The translations under genes were made by a program, and so were the position numbers. Source: a virus (taxonomy: Duplodnaviria > Heunggongvirae > Uroviricota > Caudoviricetes). From it: a stretch of 11,722 nucleotides of DNA. The stretch lies in IMG/VR virus record IMGVR_UViG_2713896897_000002, one strand, 5' to 3'. Below the pieces are notes generated by a model that ran no database searches, had not been told where the DNA came from, and saw nothing but the letters and a program-made list of their open reading frames with translations. How positions within the stretch are numbered: the stretch's first letter is position 1; each line of letters begins with the position of its first letter. Shown in pieces: positions 2,679 through 10,392 of this stretch.

Positions 2679-2912
2679 CAGTCTGAGAGCCACTTTCACA
2701 ACGGCTCTCCATTACAAAGCCCATCTACTGGTGGGCTTGATAATGGCTTATACCCTACACGGGATAACTTAACTGATATCCCTTTTAACGGATAAAGGTA
2801 TTCAGGCCTGACACATCATGCGCTGTATCGTCGCTGTATTTCCGCATTAACCATGACCGTAGCCCGACGGGGAACTCCTCTGCGCGAGCATGCAGGATGT
2901 TGATTCATTGCT

Positions 2913-2930
2913 GTGCGACCGTGGTCGCAC
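2913..2930. repeat. Perfect 8-bp inverted repeat with 2-bp spacer (GTGCGACC gt GGTCGCAC)
   Basis: Read directly from the sequence; lies about 85 bp upstream of cosN in the non-coding cos-proximal region. Confidence 0.6.
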
Positions 2931-2987
2931 GACGCTGGTCTGTAAGATATTGAATTTATTGAGAATGAACCAGAGCGCCTGCGGGTC

Positions 2988-3011
2988 CTTTCCGGCGATC
3001 CGGCAGGCTAC
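2988..3011. other. cosQ-like element (packaging termination signal) just upstream of cosN
   Basis: GGGTCCTTTCCGGCGATCCGGCAGGCTACG closely matches the recalled lambda right-end sequence GGGTCCTTTCCGGTGATCCGACAGGTTACG that immediately precedes the cohesive end. Confidence 0.7.
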
Positions 3012-3012
3012 G

Positions 3013-3024
3013 GGGCGGCGACCT
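3013..3024. other. cos: cosN: 12-nt cohesive-end sequence GGGCGGCGACCT (terminase nicking site; virion DNA ends)
   Basis: Exact lambda cohesive-end 12-mer, embedded in GGGGCGGCGACCTCGCGGTTTTTCACTATTTATGAAAATTTT, which closely matches the recalled lambda left-end sequence. Confidence 0.85.
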
Positions 3025-3199
3025 CGCGGTTTTTCACTATTTATGAAAATTTTTCAGGGAAAATCGTGTCGGTACTTCTCGAATATAACTTTTTGTTTTT
3101 TTTAATATTGCTTTCATAAAGGTCCGACATGAAAGTGTCCGAAAATGCCTTTTTCTGGCGTTTTCATGTCGGGCCTTGTATTTGATAATGGGGTGTTTT
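3025..3199. promoter_or_regulatory. cosB-like terminase small-subunit binding region with dyad repeats (diverged from lambda R sites)
   Basis: Lies between cosN and the Nu1 start. Contains GGTCCGACATGAAA (3121-3134) and its near-perfect inverted copy TTTCATGTCGGGCC (3163-3176), a third GTCCGA copy at 3137-3142, an overlapping small dyad CTTTCAT/ATGAAAG (3112-3135) and A/T tracts. It does not match lambda R-site sequence as I recall it. Confidence 0.5.
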
Positions 3200-3748
3200 A
3201 TGAAGGTTAATAAAAAGAGGCTTGCCGAAATTTTTAACGTGGACCCGCGGACGATTGAACGCTGGCAGTCTCAGGGGCTCCCTTGCGTCTCCAAAGGCAG
3301 TAAGGGCATTGAATCTGTATTTGATACTGCCATGGCAATTCAGTGGTATGCGCAGAGGGAAACTGATATCGAAAACGAAAAGCTCCGCAAAGAACTGGAC
3401 GATTTGCGTGCGGCAGCGGAGTCAGATTTACAACCCGGCACCATTGACTATGAACGCTACCGGCTCACAAAAGCGCAGGCAGATGCGCAGGAACTGAAAA
3501 ATGCCCGTGAAGACGGAGTGGTGCTGGAAACTGAACTGTTTACCTTCATTCTGCAACGTGTGGCACAGGAGATTTCGGGGATACTTGTGCGTGTGCCGTT
3601 GACATTACAGCGTAAATATCCGGACATTTCACCATCACACCTTGATGTGGTGAAAACTGAAATCGCGAAAGCCTCCAATGTTGCAGCTAAGGCCGGTGAA
3701 AACGTGGGCGGGTGGATCGATGATTTCAGACGCACAGAAGGCAGCTAA
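3200..3748 (+). CDS. nu1: Terminase small subunit (gpNu1-like)
   Basis: [28 protein letters not shown]... aligns along its whole length with recalled lambda Nu1 (MEVNKKQLADIFGASIRTIQNWQEQGMP...). Winged-HTH N-terminus. ATG at 3200 is preferred over the upstream TTG at 3176. Confidence 0.9.
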
Positions 3749-5648
3749 TGCAGCCGGTGCGATAGCTACAGGGCTTTTATCTCTCATTATTCCTGTTCCA
3801 CTGACGACAGTTCAGTGGGCCAATAAACATTATTACCTTCCTAAAGAGTCGTCTTATACCCCGGGGCGGTGGGAAACACTGCCGTTTCAGGTTGGCATCA
3901 TGAACTGTATGGGCAACGATCTGATTCGCACTGTTAACCTGATTAAATCTGCCCGTGTTGGTTATACAAAGATGTTGCTGGGAGTGGAGGCTTATTTTAT
4001 TGAGCATAAATCACGCAACAGCCTTCTTTTTCAGCCCACGGACTCAGCCGCTGAAGATTTTATGAAATCTCATGTTGAGCCAACGATAAGGGATGTTCCT
4101 GCATTGCTGGAGCTGGCTCCATGGTTCGGAAGAAAACACCGCGATAATACGCTCACCCTGAAGCGTTTTTCCTCCGGTGTGGGGTTCTGGTGTCTGGGTG
4201 GTGCGGCAGCAAAAAACTACCGTGAAAAATCCGTGGATGTGGTCTGTTATGACGAGCTTTCCTCGTTCGAACCGGATGTTGAAAAAGAGGGGTCGCCAAC
4301 CCTGCTGGGGGATAAACGTATTGAGGGCTCTGTATGGCCAAAATCCATTCGCGGCTCGACGCCTAAAATCAAAGGCTCCTGCCAGATCGAAAAAGCCGCT
4401 AACGAGTCGGCACATTTCATGCGTTTTTATGTGCCCTGTCCGCACTGTGGGGAGGAGCAGTATCTGAAATTTGGCGATGATGCCTCGCCTTTCGGTCTTA
4501 AGTGGGAGAAGAATAAGCCAGAAAGTGTTTTCTACCTTTGTGAGCATCATGGCTGTGTGATCCATCAGTCTGAGCTTGACCAGAGTAACGGGCGGTGGAT
4601 CTGTGAAAACACGGGCATGTGGACCCGTGACGGCCTGATGTTTTTCAGCGCCCGGGGTGATGAAATTCCGCCGCCGCGCTCCATCACTTTCCATATCTGG
4701 ACGGCGTACAGTCCGTTCACCACTTGGGTACAGATTGTCTATGACTGGCTGGATGCACTGAAAGATCCCAACGGCCTGAAAACCTTTGTGAACACCACGC
4801 TGGGCGAGACCTACGAAGAGGCCGTGGGCGAAAAACTCGATCACCAGGTACTGATGGATAAGGTTGTGCGTTACACGGCGGCGGTGCCTGCCCGGGTGGT
4901 TTATCTGACGGCGGGCATTGACTCGCAGCGAAACCGTTTTGAGATGTATGTCTGGGGATGGGCTCCGGGAGAGGAAGCCTTTCTGGTGGATAAAATCGTC
5001 ATTATGGGGCGTCCCGATGAGGAAGAGACGCTGTTACGTGTGGACGCGGCGATCAACAAAAAATACCGCCATGCAGACGGAACCGAAATGACTATTTCCC
5101 GTGTCTGCTGGGACATCGGGGGGATCGATGGCGAAATCGTTTATCAGAGGTCAAAAAAACACGGTGTTTTCCGGGTGCTGCCGATAAAAGGCGCATCTGT
5201 CTATGGCAAGCCGGTGATCACCATGCCAAAAACCCGCAATCAGCGGGGCGTGTATCTGTGTGAAGTGGGGACGGACACCGCAAAAGAAATTCTCTATGCC
5301 CGTATGAAAGCCGATCCCACGCCTGTGGATGAAGCCACGTCGTATGCCATCCGTTTTCCTGATGATCCGGAGATTTTTTCGCAGACAGAGGCGCAGCAAC
5401 TGGTCGCGGAAGAGCTTGTGGAGAAGTGGGAAAAAGGAAACAAGATGCGTCTGCTGTGGGATAAAAAGCGGCGTAACGAAGCGCTGGACTGCCTGGTGTA
5501 TGCCTACGCGGCATTACGTGTGTCCGTGCAACGCTGGCAGCTTGATCTGGTTGTACTGGCAAAATCCCGGGAAGAAGAGACGACCCGGCCAACCCTTAAA
5601 GAACTGGCAGCGAAGCTGTCCGGAGGAGTGAATGGTTACAGTCGCTGA
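3720..5648 (+). CDS. A: Terminase large subunit (gpA-like; ATPase/endonuclease)
   Basis: Strong collinear match to recalled lambda gpA ([25 protein letters not shown]...[22 protein letters not shown]...). About 642 aa. ATG at 3720 (MISDAQ...) overlaps the Nu1 3' end by 29 nt, as in lambda. The extension to 3678 is unlikely. Confidence 0.9.
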
Positions 5649-5838
5649 ACTGCAGGCGCTGCGTCAGGCGCGCCTTGATTTATTAACCGGTAAACGGGTG
5701 GTGTCGGTCCAGAAAGATGGTCGCAGAATTGAATATACGGCGGCTTCTCTGGATGAGCTTAACCGGGCGATCAATGATGCGGAGTCGGTACTGGGGACAA
5801 CCCGGCGTCGCCGTCGTCCGCTGGGAGTGAGGTTATGA
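5632..5838 (+). CDS. W: Head-tail joining / head completion protein (gpW-like)
   Basis: The 68-aa product [40 protein letters not shown]... matches recalled lambda gpW (…[22 protein letters not shown]…). It overlaps the A 3' end and is coupled to the portal gene by an ATGA overlap. Confidence 0.85.
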   Translation: MVTVAELQALRQARLDLLTGKRVVSVQKDGRRIEYTAASLDELNRAINDAESVLGTTRRRRRPLGVRL

Positions 5839-7427
5839 AACGAACGCCTGTCCTGATTGATGTGAACGGCGTTCCGCTTCGTGAGAGTCTCAGCTACAAC
5901 GGGGGCGGTGCAGGATTTGGCGGGCAAATGGCGGAGTGGTTGCCACCGGCGCAGAGTGCCGATGCGGCCCTGCTTCCCGCGTTGCGTCTGGGGAATGCCC
6001 GGGCGGATGATCTGGTGCGCAATAACGGGATAGCGGCCAATGCGGTGGCACTGCATAAGGATCACATTGTCGGGCATATGTTTCTGATTAGCTACCGTCC
6101 GAACTGGCGCTGGCTGGGGATGCGGGAGACCGCAGCAAAAAGCTTTGTCGATGAGGTGGAGGCGGCCTGGTCGGAATACGCCGAAGGGATGTTTGGCGAG
6201 ATCGACGTGGAAGGAAAACGCACCTTCACGGAATTTATCCGTGAAGGTGTGGGCGTTCATGCGTTTAACGGCGAAATCTTTGTGCAGCCGGTCTGGGATA
6301 CGGAAACCACGCAGTTATTCCGTACGCATTTTAAAGCCGTGAGTCCGAAACGGGTGGACACGCCTGGACACGGTATGGGGAACCGTTTTCTGCGGGCCGG
6401 TGTGGAGGTCGATCGATATGGCCGTGCCGTCGCGTACCATATCTGTGAGGATGATTTTCCGTTCTCTGGTAGTGGACGATGGGAACGGATCCCGCGTGAA
6501 CTTCCCACCGGGCGTCCGGCCATGCTGCATATTTTCGAGCCGGTGGAGGACGGGCAGACCCGTGGGGCTAATCAGTTTTACAGCGTCATGGAACGGCTGA
6601 AGATGCTCGATTCCCTGCAGGCAACACAGCTTCAGTCGGCCATAGTGAAGGCGATGTATGCAGCGACGATTGAAAGTGAACTTGATACCGAAAAGGCCTT
6701 TGAATATATCGCCGGCGCGCCACAGGAGCAGAAGGATAATCCGCTTATTAATATTCTGGAGAAGTTCTCCAGCTGGTATGACACGAATAACGTGACACTG
6801 GGCGGTGTCAAAATTCCGCACCTTTTCCCTGGTGATGATCTGAAACTACAGACAGCGCAGGATTCAGACAATGGATTTTCTGCGCTTGAACAGGCGCTGC
6901 TGCGGTATATCGCCGCCGGTCTTGGCGTTTCCTACGAACAGTTGTCCCGTGATTACTCGAAGGTCAGTTACTCAAGTGCCCGCGCCTCCGCCAATGAGTC
7001 GTGGCGCTATTTTATGGGGCGGCGAAAATTTATTGCGGCCCGGCTGGCCACGCAGATGTTTTCCTGCTGGCTGGAAGAGGCACTTCTTCGGGGGATTATT
7101 CGTCCGCCACGGGCACGTTTTGATTTTTATCAGGCGCGATCAGCCTGGTCACGGGCAGAGTGGATTGGTGCCGGAAGAATGGCCATTGACGGGCTCAAGG
7201 AAGTCCAGGAATCAGTGATGCGCATTGAGGCCGGACTGAGCACGTATGAGAAAGAGCTGGCGCTAATGGGCGAGGATTATCAGGACATTTTCCGCCAGCA
7301 GGTCAGGGAATCTGCAGAGCGGCAAAAAGCCGGACTCTCACGTCCGGTGTGGATAGCGCAGGCGTATCAGCAGCAGATAGCGGAGAGTCGCAGGCCGGAA
7401 GAGGAGACAACACCACGTGAGACGTAA
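5835..7427 (+). CDS. B: Portal protein (gpB-like)
   Basis: 530 aa; position and length match lambda gpB (533 aa); ATGA overlap with W. Confidence 0.85.
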   Translation: MKRTPVLIDVNGVPLRESLSYNGGGAGFGGQMAEWLPPAQSADAALLPALRLGNARADDLVRNNGIAANAVALHKDHIVGHMFLISYRPNWRWLGMRETAAKSFVDEVEAAWSEYAEGMFGEIDVEGKRTFTEFIREGVGVHAFNGEIFVQPVWDTETTQLFRTHFKAVSPKRVDTPGHGMGNRFLRAGVEVDRYGRAVAYHICEDDFPFSGSGRWERIPRELPTGRPAMLHIFEPVEDGQTRGANQFYSVMERLKMLDSLQATQLQSAIVKAMYAATIESELDTEKAFEYIAGAPQEQKDNPLINILEKFSSWYDTNNVTLGGVKIPHLFPGDDLKLQTAQDSDNGFSALEQALLRYIAAGLGVSYEQLSRDYSKVSYSSARASANESWRYFMGRRKFIAARLATQMFSCWLEEALLRGIIRPPRARFDFYQARSAWSRAEWIGAGRMAIDGLKEVQESVMRIEAGLSTYEKELALMGEDYQDIFRQQVRESAERQKAGLSRPVWIAQAYQQQIAESRRPEEETTPRET

Positions 7428-8922
7428 TCTTTCACACATTATTGCCGCAGCATTCAATGAACCGCTGCTTCTGGAGCCCGCCTATGCGCGGGTTTTCTTT
7501 TGCGCGCTCGGGCGCGAGATGGGGGCAGCAAGTCTTTCGGTACCACAACAGCAGGTACAGTTTGATGCTCCCGGAATGCTGGCTGAAACGGACGAGTACA
7601 TGGCCGGAGGTAAACGACCGGCCCGTGTTTACAGGGTGGTGAACGGTATTGCTGTACTGCCGGTGACCGGCACGCTGGTGCACCGGCTGGGTGGTATGCG
7701 GCCATTTTCCGGAATGACAGGCTATGACGGTATTGTCGCCTGTCTTCAGCAGGCAATGGCGGATAGCCAGGTGCGGGGCGTACTGCTGGACATTGACAGT
7801 CCGGGCGGGCAGGCCGCCGGCGCGTTTGACTGCGCTGACATGATTTACCGCCTCCGTCAGCAGAAGCCGGTCTGGGCACTGTGCAATGACACGGCCTGTT
7901 CTGCAGCCATGCTGCTGGCGTCGGCTTGCTCCCGACGACTGGTTACCCAGACATCCCGTATCGGCTCCATTGGCGTGATGATGAGCCATGTCAGCTATGC
8001 CGGTCATCTGGCGCAGGTCGGTGTGGATATCACGCTGATTTACTCAGGGGCGCACAAGGTGGATGGCAATCAGTTTGAAGCGTTGCCGGCAGAGGTTCGC
8101 CAGGACATGCAGCAGCGGATTGATGCGGCGCGCCGGATGTTTGCCGAAAAAGTGGCGATGTTTACCGGTCTGTCTGTTGATGCAGTCACGGGAACAGAGG
8201 CCGCCGTTTTTGAAGGTCAGTCTGGCATTGAGGCCGGGCTGGCGGATGAATTAATCAATGCGTCGGATGCCATCAGTGTGATGGCCACGGCGCTGAACAG
8301 TAATGTCAGAGGAGGCACTATGCCGCAATTAACTGCAACGGAAGCCGCCGCGCAGGAGAACCAGCGAGTGATGGGGATCCTGACATGCCAGGAAGCGAAA
8401 GGACGTGAACAGCTTGCCACGATGCTGGCAGGACAACAGGGCATGAGCGTTGAACAGGCCCGGGCGATTCTGGCCGCGGCGGCACCGCAGCAGCCGGTGG
8501 CATCCACGCAGAGTGAAGCCGATCGCATTATGGCGTGTGAAGAAGCGAACGGTCGTAAACAACTGGCGGCAACGCTGGCGGCGATGCCGGAGATGACGGT
8601 GGAAAAAGCCCGCCCGATCCTGGCTGCTTTACCGCAGGCGGATGCCGGACCATCACTCCGTGATCAGATCATGGCACTGGATGAGGCAAAAGGGGCTGAG
8701 GCGCAGGCTGAACAGCTGGCTGCCTGCCCGGGAATGACTGTGGAGAGCGCCCGGGCTGTGCTGGCTGCGGGATCAGGTAAGGCAGAACCGGTCTCTGCAT
8801 CCACAACCGCCATGTTTGAACATTTCATGGCGAACCATTCACCGGCAGCGGTACAGGGTGGCGTGCCACAGACGTCAGCAGACGGTGATGCGGACGTAAA
8901 AATGCTCATGGCCATGCCATGA
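7417..8922 (+). CDS. C: Head maturation protease / scaffold fusion (gpC-like, S49/SppA-type serine protease)
   Basis: The N-terminus RNLSHIIAAAFNEPLLLEPAYARVFFCAL matches recalled lambda gpC (RNLPHIASMAFNEPLMLEPAYARVFFCAL). GSIGVMMSH is the candidate catalytic-serine region. GTG start at 7417 follows GAGGAG (7401-7406) and overlaps the portal 3' end. Confidence 0.85.
   Translation: MRRNLSHIIAAAFNEPLLLEPAYARVFFCALGREMGAASLSVPQQQVQFDAPGMLAETDEYMAGGKRPARVYRVVNGIAVLPVTGTLVHRLGGMRPFSGMTGYDGIVACLQQAMADSQVRGVLLDIDSPGGQAAGAFDCADMIYRLRQQKPVWALCNDTACSAAMLLASACSRRLVTQTSRIGSIGVMMSHVSYAGHLAQVGVDITLIYSGAHKVDGNQFEALPAEVRQDMQQRIDAARRMFAEKVAMFTGLSVDAVTGTEAAVFEGQSGIEAGLADELINASDAISVMATALNSNVRGGTMPQLTATEAAAQENQRVMGILTCQEAKGREQLATMLAGQQGMSVEQARAILAAAAPQQPVASTQSEADRIMACEEANGRKQLAATLAAMPEMTVEKARPILAALPQADAGPSLRDQIMALDEAKGAEAQAEQLAACPGMTVESARAVLAAGSGKAEPVSASTTAMFEHFMANHSPAAVQGGVPQTSADGDADVKMLMAMP
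8320..8922 (+). CDS. nu3: Nu3-like scaffolding protein from an in-frame internal start within gpC
   Basis: Strong Shine-Dalgarno AGAGGAGG (8308-8315) lies 4 nt before in-frame ATG 8320 (…GGTMPQLTA…). The product is about 200 aa and corresponds in position to the lambda Nu3 start as I recall it (…GGRMTKE…). Confidence 0.5.
   Translation: MPQLTATEAAAQENQRVMGILTCQEAKGREQLATMLAGQQGMSVEQARAILAAAAPQQPVASTQSEADRIMACEEANGRKQLAATLAAMPEMTVEKARPILAALPQADAGPSLRDQIMALDEAKGAEAQAEQLAACPGMTVESARAVLAAGSGKAEPVSASTTAMFEHFMANHSPAAVQGGVPQTSADGDADVKMLMAMP
8359..8775 (+). repeat. Three tandem degenerate coding repeats (about 47-52 aa each) in the C/Nu3 scaffold domain
   Basis: Repeat units begin RVMGILTCQEAKGREQLATMLAGQQGMSVEQARAILAAA, RIMACEEANGRKQLAATLAAMPEMTVEKARPILAAL and QIMALDEAKGAEAQAEQLAACPGMTVESARAVLAAG, with their ATG codons at 8371, 8530 and 8671. 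Confidence 0.7.
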
Positions 8923-8958: not shown

Positions 8959-9306
8959 ATGGTGACGAAAACCATCACTGAACAGCGTGCGGAAGTACGT
9001 ATTTTTGCCGGTAATGATCCGGCTCATACCGCCACAGGCAGCAGCGGGATTTCCTCGCCAACACCGGCACTGACGCCCCTGATGCTGGATGAAGCCACCG
9101 GGAAACTGGTGGTCTGGGACGGACAGAAAGCCGGTAGTGCGGTTGGCATACTGGTACTGCCGCTTGAAGGCACAGAGACGGCGCTGACGTATTACAAGTC
9201 GGGAACCTTTGCGACGGAGGCAATCCACTGGCCTGAAAGTGTGGATGAACACAAAAAGGCCAACGCCTTTGCCGGCAGTGCCCTGAGTCACGCGGCGCTG
9301 CCGTAA
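8959..9306 (+). CDS. D: Head decoration protein (gpD-like)
   Basis: The 115-aa product contains NDPAHTATG…LTPLMLDEATGKLVVWDG…AVGILV…YYKSGTF…FAGSA, matching recalled lambda gpD (SDPAHTATAPGG…MTPLMLDTSSRKLVAWDG…). AGGAGG (8942-8947) precedes ATG 8959. Confidence 0.85.
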   Translation: MVTKTITEQRAEVRIFAGNDPAHTATGSSGISSPTPALTPLMLDEATGKLVVWDGQKAGSAVGILVLPLEGTETALTYYKSGTFATEAIHWPESVDEHKKANAFAGSALSHAALP

Positions 9307-9363: not shown

Positions 9364-10392
9364 ATGGGATTGTTTACGACCCGCCAGTTACTCGGTTATA
9401 CCGAACAAAAAGTTAAATTTCGTGCGCTGTTTCTGGAGCTGTTTTTCCGCCGTACAGTGAATTTCCATACCGAAGAGGTGATGCTGGACAAAATTACCGG
9501 AAAAACGCCGGTGGCGGCCTATGTCTCCCCGGTTGTTGAAGGAAAAGTGCTGCGTCATCGTGGTGGTGAAACCCGCGTGTTGCGTCCGGGCTACGTCAAG
9601 CCGAAACACGAATTTAATTACCAGCAGGCGGTTGAGCGCCTTCCTGGTGAAGATCCATCTCAACTGAATGATCCGGCTTACCGCCGTCTGCGTATCATTA
9701 CCGATAACCTCAAACAGGAAGAGCACGCGATTGTCCAGGTGGAAGAAATGCAGGCGGTAAATGCTGTGTTGTATGGCAAATACACCATGGAAGGAGACCA
9801 GTTCGAGAAAATTGAGGTCGATTTTGGCAGGTCGACGAAGAATAACATCACTCAGGGTAGTGGTAAGGAGTGGTCAAAACAGGATCGTGACACGTTCGAT
9901 CCTACACATGATATTGACCTCTACTGCGACCAGGCCAGCGGTCTTGTGAATATTGCCATTATGGACGGTACCGTCTGGCGTCTTCTGAATGGTTTTAAGC
10001 TGTTCCGCGAAAAACTGGATACCCGTCGCGGTTCAAATTCTCAACTCGAAACGGCAGTGAAAGATCTGGGCGCAGTGGTGTCCTTCAAGGGGTATTACGG
10101 CGATCTGGCTATTGTTGTGGCGAAAACGTCTTATATAGCAGAAGACGGTATCGAAAAACGTTATCTTCCAGATGGCATGCTGGTTCTGGGGAATACTGCT
10201 GCAGATGGGATCCGTTGTTACGGTGCCATTCAGGATGCTCAGGCGTTGTCCGAAGGTGTGGTGGCCTCTTCCCGTTATCCGAAACACTGGCTGACGGTAG
10301 GGGATCCCGCCCGTGAATTTACCATGACGCAGTCCGCGCCGCTGATGGTGTTGCCGGACCCGGATGAGTTTGTGGTGGTACAGGTGAAATAA
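9364..10392 (+). CDS. E: Major capsid protein (gpE-like)
   Basis: The 342-aa product is collinear with recalled lambda gpE (…PGYVKPKHE…AIVQVEEMQAV…KYTM…NNITQ…EWSK…KEKLDTRRGSNS…LETAVKDLG…YPK…TGDPAREFTM…QSAPLM…DPDEFV…). Confidence 0.9.
   Translation: MGLFTTRQLLGYTEQKVKFRALFLELFFRRTVNFHTEEVMLDKITGKTPVAAYVSPVVEGKVLRHRGGETRVLRPGYVKPKHEFNYQQAVERLPGEDPSQLNDPAYRRLRIITDNLKQEEHAIVQVEEMQAVNAVLYGKYTMEGDQFEKIEVDFGRSTKNNITQGSGKEWSKQDRDTFDPTHDIDLYCDQASGLVNIAIMDGTVWRLLNGFKLFREKLDTRRGSNSQLETAVKDLGAVVSFKGYYGDLAIVVAKTSYIAEDGIEKRYLPDGMLVLGNTAADGIRCYGAIQDAQALSEGVVASSRYPKHWLTVGDPAREFTMTQSAPLMVLPDPDEFVVVQVK

Follow-up and report, generated by a model that had tools for sequence, protein, structure and literature searches.

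A phage-21-type prohead protease gene with a predicted nested scaffold gene and three tandem Nu3-like units

The DNA analysed here, referred to as the window, is a stretch of 11,722 nucleotides from a virus of the Caudoviricetes (IMG/VR record IMGVR_UViG_2713896897_000002). An open reading frame (ORF) on its plus strand, at 7417-8922, starts with GTG at 7417, overlaps the end of the portal gene and comprises 501 codons, with a product (gp5) made up of a gpC-type prohead protease and a scaffold region. Its 1,506 bases are 99.0-99.1% identical in nucleotide sequence to those of phage 21 and phage-21-like coliphages. The gene corresponds to positions 4572-6077 of the phage 21 record M81255.1, where it is annotated as gene 5 (99.0% nucleotide identity), and each window coordinate equals the M81255.1 coordinate plus 2845. 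Judged by sequence, the locus is the gene 5/gene 6 pair of an Escherichia coli prophage of the phage 21 type, the counterpart of lambda C/Nu3. Its position is also that of the lambda C/Nu3 type, between the portal gene and the genes for the decoration and major capsid proteins of a lambdoid head operon. The comparisons described below support the assignment of 8308-8922 as the scaffold (Nu3-like) part of this protease gene, as had been proposed in an earlier annotation made from the sequence alone (the original prediction).

About 300 N-terminal residues of gp5 form the protease part, in which a peptidase S49 domain (Pfam PF01343) was detected at aa 146-293, or 7852-8295 on the plus strand (E 1.3e-34; 119.9 bits against a cutoff of 24.9). 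In a sequence search of the PDB, this part matched the SppA structures 3rst and 4kwb (E 2e-16); the matches were to SppA-type proteases only, with none for the scaffold part. Ser162 of gp5 aligns with Ser166 of lambda gpC, which Medina and colleagues are said to have reported in 2010 as the catalytic residue.

The last 200 codons of gp5 contain three tandem units of ~40-45 aa. A hidden Markov model (HMM) of the unit gave three domains on the plus strand, each with E ~1e-27, at gp5 aa 314-358 (unit 1, 8356-8490), 367-407 (unit 2, 8515-8637) and 414-455 (unit 3, 8656-8781). The ungapped cores of these units lie at aa 321-354, 371-404 and 418-451 (8377-8478, 8527-8628 and 8668-8769), with start-to-start spacings of 50 and 47 aa. 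In pairwise local alignment the units scored 83-95 (BLOSUM62), compared with 24 +/- 5 in 2000 shuffles (z 11-15; best shuffle 55), and protein identity between units was 53-59% over 34-36 aa. The protein carries the consensus of the Nu3 unit, I(M/L)xxxEAxGRExxAxxLAxxPGMTVExAxxxLAAAP. Exactly one domain was found by the same model in lambda gpC, at aa 357-400, so the statement in the original prediction that a unit present once in lambda Nu3 occurs three times in the C-terminal 200 aa here was correct, as were the coordinates and the lambda sequence given there. No Pfam family spanned the repeat unit in a scan of gp5 and of gp6, the nested product described below. A helix-hairpin-helix match (PF00633) to unit 3 only was sub-threshold (15.2 bits against a cutoff of 24; E 0.019) and was rejected.

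A comparison of the repeat at both sequence levels, proposed with the original prediction, brought out the units clearly in protein, but a nucleotide repeat search of the region recovered only fragments of 12-22 nt. DNA identity among the units is only 59-66%, and they agree at 12-14 of 34 third codon positions. This low identity, together with the fragmentary nucleotide signal, indicates an old repeat that has been maintained at the protein level. Unit 1 is 60-62% identical to the lambda unit, has in common with it a longer first helix (NQRVMGIL), and is 71-84% identical to unit 1 of other three-unit proteins. These alignments identify unit 1 as orthologous to the one unit of lambda, while units 2 and 3 are additions, old tandem duplicates that appear to have been kept by selection. 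The units are followed by a C-terminal tail (aa 456-501; 8782-8919, plus strand). Among the 56 full-length homologues compared, tails after the last unit are 40-60 aa long and conserve an h-x-x-h-M...NP/SP motif, with the remainder divergent. The tail of the window protein has the conserved motif as F-x-x-F-M...SP and a terminal LMxxP, is fast-evolving, and is 28-31% identical to the tails of lambda and of the Salmonella prophage Gifsy-1.

A second start codon in the same frame, ATG at 8320, follows the protease domain. It is preceded by the Shine-Dalgarno (SD) sequence AGAGGAGG at 8308-8315 on the plus strand, with its core AGGAGG at 8310-8315, and by the 4 nt spacer CACT. The predicted duplex with the 3' end of 16S rRNA has an energy of -12.0 kcal/mol, the strongest among the 16 gene starts scored in the window and among the 46 in-frame start codons within the gene. 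The window has a single AGGAGG-N4-ATG, where 0.07 would be expected by chance. The strong SD that the original prediction had seen before this ATG is therefore present, and at the sequence level the locus has an internal start in frame and a separate ribosome-binding site for it (8310-8322), as in the lambda C/Nu3 type. The nested gene (gene 6, the Nu3 equivalent; 8320-8922, plus strand) would encode gp6, a protein of 200 aa and 20.6 kDa that is acidic (isoelectric point 4.7), contains 23% Ala, and has its C-terminus in common with gp5.

All of these elements are annotated in the phage 21 record. M81255.1 carries gene 6 as a coding sequence at 5475-6077 (window 8320-8922) and a 'putative' ribosome-binding site (window 8309-8313). 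Its three annotated repeats, the Tri1 box (8387-8490), Tri box (8527-8637) and Tri3 box (8668-8781), lie within units 1, 2 and 3. Phage 21 thus has the GTG start, the nested ATG, the ribosome-binding site and the three repeat regions at the same positions as the window. Its gp5 differs from the window protein by six substitutions (V201A, F249Y, A373V, K381E, L405S and P484A), and unit 2 accounts for three of these. A complete genome deposited in 2022 (OL657228.1) likewise has a 'capsid protease/scaffolding protein' with a nested 'scaffolding protein' and a ribosome-binding site at the matching position, and the Gifsy-1 record cites the Swiss-Prot entry of phage 21 gp5 with the words 'Contains: Scaffold protein GP6'. 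The nested gene and the triplication are already known, having been annotated in the 1990s with the phage 21 head operon. The evidence for this prior description is the GenBank feature table; no open-access paper naming the Tri boxes was found. The original phage 21 paper is said to be that of Smith and Feiss (1993, Gene 126:1-7).

In each relative examined, the best combination of SD and start codon in the stretch from the protease domain to unit 1 falls at the homologous codon. AGGAGG-N4-ATG is found at Met309 of lambda (NC_001416, nt ~5330-5345; -10.8 kcal/mol) and at Met302 of Gifsy-1 (-10.3 kcal/mol), phi80 has an SD-ATG at Met311 (-9.3 kcal/mol), and an allele with four units, described below, has its own nested AAGGAG-N5-ATG. 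Most of 58 full-length homologues have Met with small residues directly after the protease domain. The proposal in the original prediction that a separate scaffold gene starts at 8320 thus agrees both with the annotated gene 6 of phage 21 and with a start that appears conserved in lambda, phi80 and Gifsy-1. The annotated start of lambda Nu3 in RefSeq/GenBank is Met239 (nt 5132), a codon with a weak SD (-6.9 kcal/mol) that corresponds to Ile in the window. These comparisons favour Met309 over the RefSeq Met239 as the start of lambda Nu3. The predicted product from Met309 to the end has 131 aa and 13.4 kDa, which fits the reported size of purified gpNu3. In a record of phage 434, the note on the corresponding coding sequence opens 'real Nu3 start ...'. 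Some distant single-unit homologues (from the group P0145, P0155, P0175 and P0212) carry linkers before the unit that are long, highly acidic and, in some cases, repetitive (e.g. DAESNEDED repeats), and that replace the Met-containing linker. This suggests that such proteins have a different architecture, without a nested start.

To place the triplication among related genes, 5,426 complete E. coli genomes were surveyed, with a three-unit gene called at a length of at least 80% and an identity of at least 90%. The lambda-type gene with one unit was present in 3,201 genomes (59%), the phage-21-type gene with three units in 1,863 (34%), and a gene with four units (P0027 / L009) in 104 (1.9%). 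The possible novelty of the triplication, which the original prediction had itself left uncertain, does not stand in view of these counts and of the Tri boxes in M81255.1. In the comparison of repeat number that it had proposed, lambda has one unit but phage 21 and Gifsy-1 have three, and the feature is an ordinary one.

When 1.84 billion cluster representatives were searched with a profile of the unit, 413 proteins matched. The best 150 of these included 58 full-length proteins (at least 350 aa); a single unit is present in 55 of the 58, and three units in P0093 and the window protein. Among closer relatives the number of units ranges from one to four, with one in lambda, phi80 and Aeromonas phage phiARM81ld, two in P0014 and the distant P0133, three in phage 21, Gifsy-1, P0093, P0092, P0030, P0066 and P0076, and four in P0027. 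The two-unit protein P0014 (329 aa) has an in-frame deletion of unit 2, and its remaining units match units 1 and 3 of the window at 100% and 95%. The units of the four-unit allele (P0027; L009 1-1043, from a contig of GCA_032727965.1) share 75-92% of their residues and 71-79% of their nucleotides with one another, and identity of only ~50% at third codon positions indicates that this expansion is not recent. An initial search for homologues of gp6 returned mostly fragments of near-identical E. coli proteins and was useful only for variants in copy number (P0014, P0027 and others). In another in-frame deletion variant, P0094 (382 aa), the protease domain is joined directly to the middle of unit 2. 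In P0044 (270 aa), a three-unit scaffold region follows an unrelated N-terminal part that bears a DPPY motif and resembles a DNA methyltransferase; this protein is probably from a rearranged prophage, or an artefact of assembly or gene calling.

A single unit, modelled with AlphaFold2 from 92 unit sequences, was predicted as a three-helix bundle (predicted local distance difference test, pLDDT, 94.2; predicted template modelling score, pTM, 0.77), in which a long helix leads through a short turn at EAKG to two more helices around the PGMT turn. In a model of the full gp6 based on 26 homologues, three separate helical modules had pLDDT values of 76-84, with low confidence in the linkers and the tail (44-60 in the tail) and a pTM of 0.28. 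In this model the three units look like beads on flexible linkers rich in Pro, Gln and Ala. A Foldseek comparison of the whole gp6 model with the PDB gave no match with E below 1.9, as is expected of a beads-on-a-string model with this pTM.

Taken together, it is highly probable that the locus is a phage-21-type gene 5/6 pair encoding a protease and a nested scaffold, with three modules in the scaffold that may act as interaction units. One reading frame would give two proteins with a common C-terminus, gp5 from the GTG at 7417, comprising the S49 serine protease and then the scaffold region, and gp6 from the ATG at 8320, comprising the scaffold region alone. Because both proteins carry the scaffold region, a few protease molecules could be drawn into the procapsid with many scaffold molecules, and the protease would then remove the scaffold before DNA is packaged. 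Co-assembly of a rare protease with an abundant scaffold, followed by degradation of the scaffold, is known for lambda C/Nu3, and homology to that pair is the basis on which both steps are proposed here. The scaffold region would be laid out as a short linker, three ~40-aa three-helix modules joined by linkers, and a poorly ordered tail. The most likely role of the module is in protein-protein interaction, as a small unit that possibly folds only on binding, and it may let scaffold molecules associate with one another, or with the capsid protein or portal, or both. On this view a scaffold of the 21 type would be trivalent and that of lambda monovalent, with capsid geometry (a T=7-sized head) unchanged.

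Several observations weigh against this interpretation. The Tri boxes in M81255.1 are all noted as 'function unknown; putative', which bears on the role given to the units, and we infer translation from 8320 from sequence, conservation and annotation. The title of Medina et al. 2011 calls lambda gpNu3 'intrinsically disordered', and the confidently modelled bundle may therefore form only on binding. In unit 3 of both the window and phage 21, the Arg that is near-invariant in the alignment of 92 units (R23) is replaced by Ala, changing EAKGRE to EAKGAE, while unit 3 of Gifsy-1 and of other three-unit homologues retains it. Unit 3 is also the least constrained unit by the ratio of nonsynonymous to synonymous substitution (dN/dS), at 0.26 compared with 0.06 for unit 1 and 0.07 for unit 2; these values, and those for the protease (0.13), linkers (0.30-0.45) and tail (0.23), were obtained by segment against Gifsy-1 and are approximate, with synonymous sites near saturation. 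Finally, since a variant without unit 2 exists (P0014), three units may not be strictly required.

The loss of the Arg and the higher dN/dS in unit 3, the existence of P0014, and the sufficiency of one unit for lambda and for 55 of the 58 full-length representatives among the best 150 matches would all be consistent with units 2 and 3 being redundant passengers, with unit 1 doing the work and a triplication that is tolerated, nearly neutral and without effect on assembly. We consider this improbable. The ratios place all three units under purifying selection, and unit 2 is constrained to the same degree as unit 1 and more than the protease. Three units have been kept since before phage 21 and Gifsy-1 split, over a distance at which synonymous sites are saturated. 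At least 80% of the region is retained in one piece in 1,868 of 1,875 matching E. coli records, and a separate lineage has reached four units.

It is very unlikely that initiation does not occur at 8320 and that the scaffold fragment arises only by self-cleavage of gp5. Proteases of the gpC type do process themselves, as is established for lambda, and the SD-like sequence consists of the coding triplets AGA GGA GGC, so that it could be read simply as Arg-Gly-Gly codons. However, lambda, phi80, Gifsy-1 and the four-unit allele all have an SD-ATG at this codon although the residues around it differ (SGGRM, TGGTM, RGGTM and KENAM), and the SD at 8320 is the strongest in the window. Scaffold is also needed in far greater numbers than protease, which a single polypeptide cannot supply. 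For lambda, the overlap of C and Nu3 was established genetically, according to the statement in PMC8508860 that cites Shaw and Murialdo 1980.

The original prediction had also raised the possibility that repeat number tunes capsid size. Some scaffolds do fix size, an example given in PMC7552001 being the action of P4 Sid on P2 capsids, but an effect of repeat number on triangulation number or DNA capacity is hardly to be expected here. The genomes of three-unit phages (42.9-54.4 kb) overlap in size with those of one-unit phages (41.6-51 kb), and the major capsid proteins are homologous and near-equal in length (342 versus 341 aa; 62% identical), and the decoration proteins are homologous as well; tuning of capsid size is therefore unsupported. 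The other suggestion of the original prediction, that repeat number influences scaffold stoichiometry, may hold, as may an influence on valency. There is next to no likelihood that the feature is a nucleic-acid element (CII-binding sites or repeated DNA) and not a repeat in the protein. Within the region, OL657228.1 annotates two 'CII binding sites' with the pattern TTGYN6TTGY ('transcription factor CII'; window 8325-8338 and 8559-8572, minus strand), but they are probably pattern noise, with two occurrences in the window against 2.47 expected by chance. The repeat itself is barely visible in DNA, its conservation lying at the first and second codon positions and not at the third.

The remainder of the window is a standard lambdoid late region that runs from lysis genes through cos into head genes. 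The lysis genes encode an S21-type holin (542-748), a lysozyme (748-1245) and Rz (1230-1679), and two small ORFs without assigned function lie between Rz and cos. The interval between Rz and cos (1882-2678 and 2890-3105) holds ORFs unlike those of the closest phage records, which carry Bor and others. In this interval a 198-aa ORF has weak matches to anti-repressor/Ant-like families in PHROG (phrog_63, 5e-11), a 67-aa protein corresponds to phrog_4439, and a 71-aa ORF had no match. The cos region is at ~3013, where position 1 of the phage 21 genome (the cos end) maps. By this mapping, a window that crosses cos has the arrangement of a prophage or of a circular or concatemeric form. Downstream of cos, a Nu1-like small terminase gene precedes the genes for the large terminase (3678-5648), a W-like protein (5632-5838) and the portal protein gp4 (5835-7427). 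The gene 5 homologue is followed by the genes for a D/shp-type decoration protein (8959-9306) and the major capsid protein gp7 (9364-10392), and by FI, FII and Z, in that order, 3' of the capsid gene. The window differs from phage 21 in being a prophage-type contig through cos and in having other genes between Rz and cos.

The scaffold of the lambda family is among the less well understood of the classical scaffolds. We suggest, as no more than a tentative proposal, that the Nu3 unit folds on contact and that the number of copies (one in lambda, three in phage 21 and Gifsy-1, four in a rarer lineage) sets the valency of the scaffold. If this were true, copy number would be an evolvable dial for the rate of procapsid nucleation, its fidelity or the ratio of scaffold to capsid protein, at constant capsid size, and the three alleles that coexist in E. 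coli prophages would represent different assembly strategies. The value of the locus as a discovery is small, the feature having been deposited with M81255.1 and the gene being among the commonest of E. coli prophage genes. The natural alleles with one, three and four units, on homologous T=7-sized capsids, nevertheless form a ready series in which scaffold valency can be tested.

Among known systems, lambda C/Nu3 resembles the window pair in its S49 protease (~60% identical), in gene position, in the SD-ATG at the homologous codon (lambda M309), in the conserved unit and in a tail with the h-x-x-h-M motif. It differs in having one unit rather than three, a linker before the unit of 48 aa rather than 12 aa, and a shorter predicted nested product (131 aa and 13.4 kDa, compared with 200 aa and 20.6 kDa in the window). 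The gpC homologue of Gifsy-1, STM2605, has the same architecture as the window protein, with three units and a nested AGGAGG-N4-ATG at the same codon, but is only 66% identical in protein overall, keeps GRE in unit 3 and has a tail that is 31% identical. In the herpesvirus UL26/UL26.5 and phage P2 gpO-type systems, a C-terminal region common to protease and scaffold also co-assembles the protease into the procapsid. The protease folds of those systems are unrelated to the S49 protease found here and there is no sequence relationship, so that the likeness is one of logic only. The protease and scaffold of P2 and lambda are described in a statement in PMC8508860 as 'encoded by a single gene'. 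For the units themselves, tandem three-helix-bundle binding modules, such as staphylococcal protein A domains, GA modules, Ebh repeats and UBA/CUE domains, are among the closest known likenesses.

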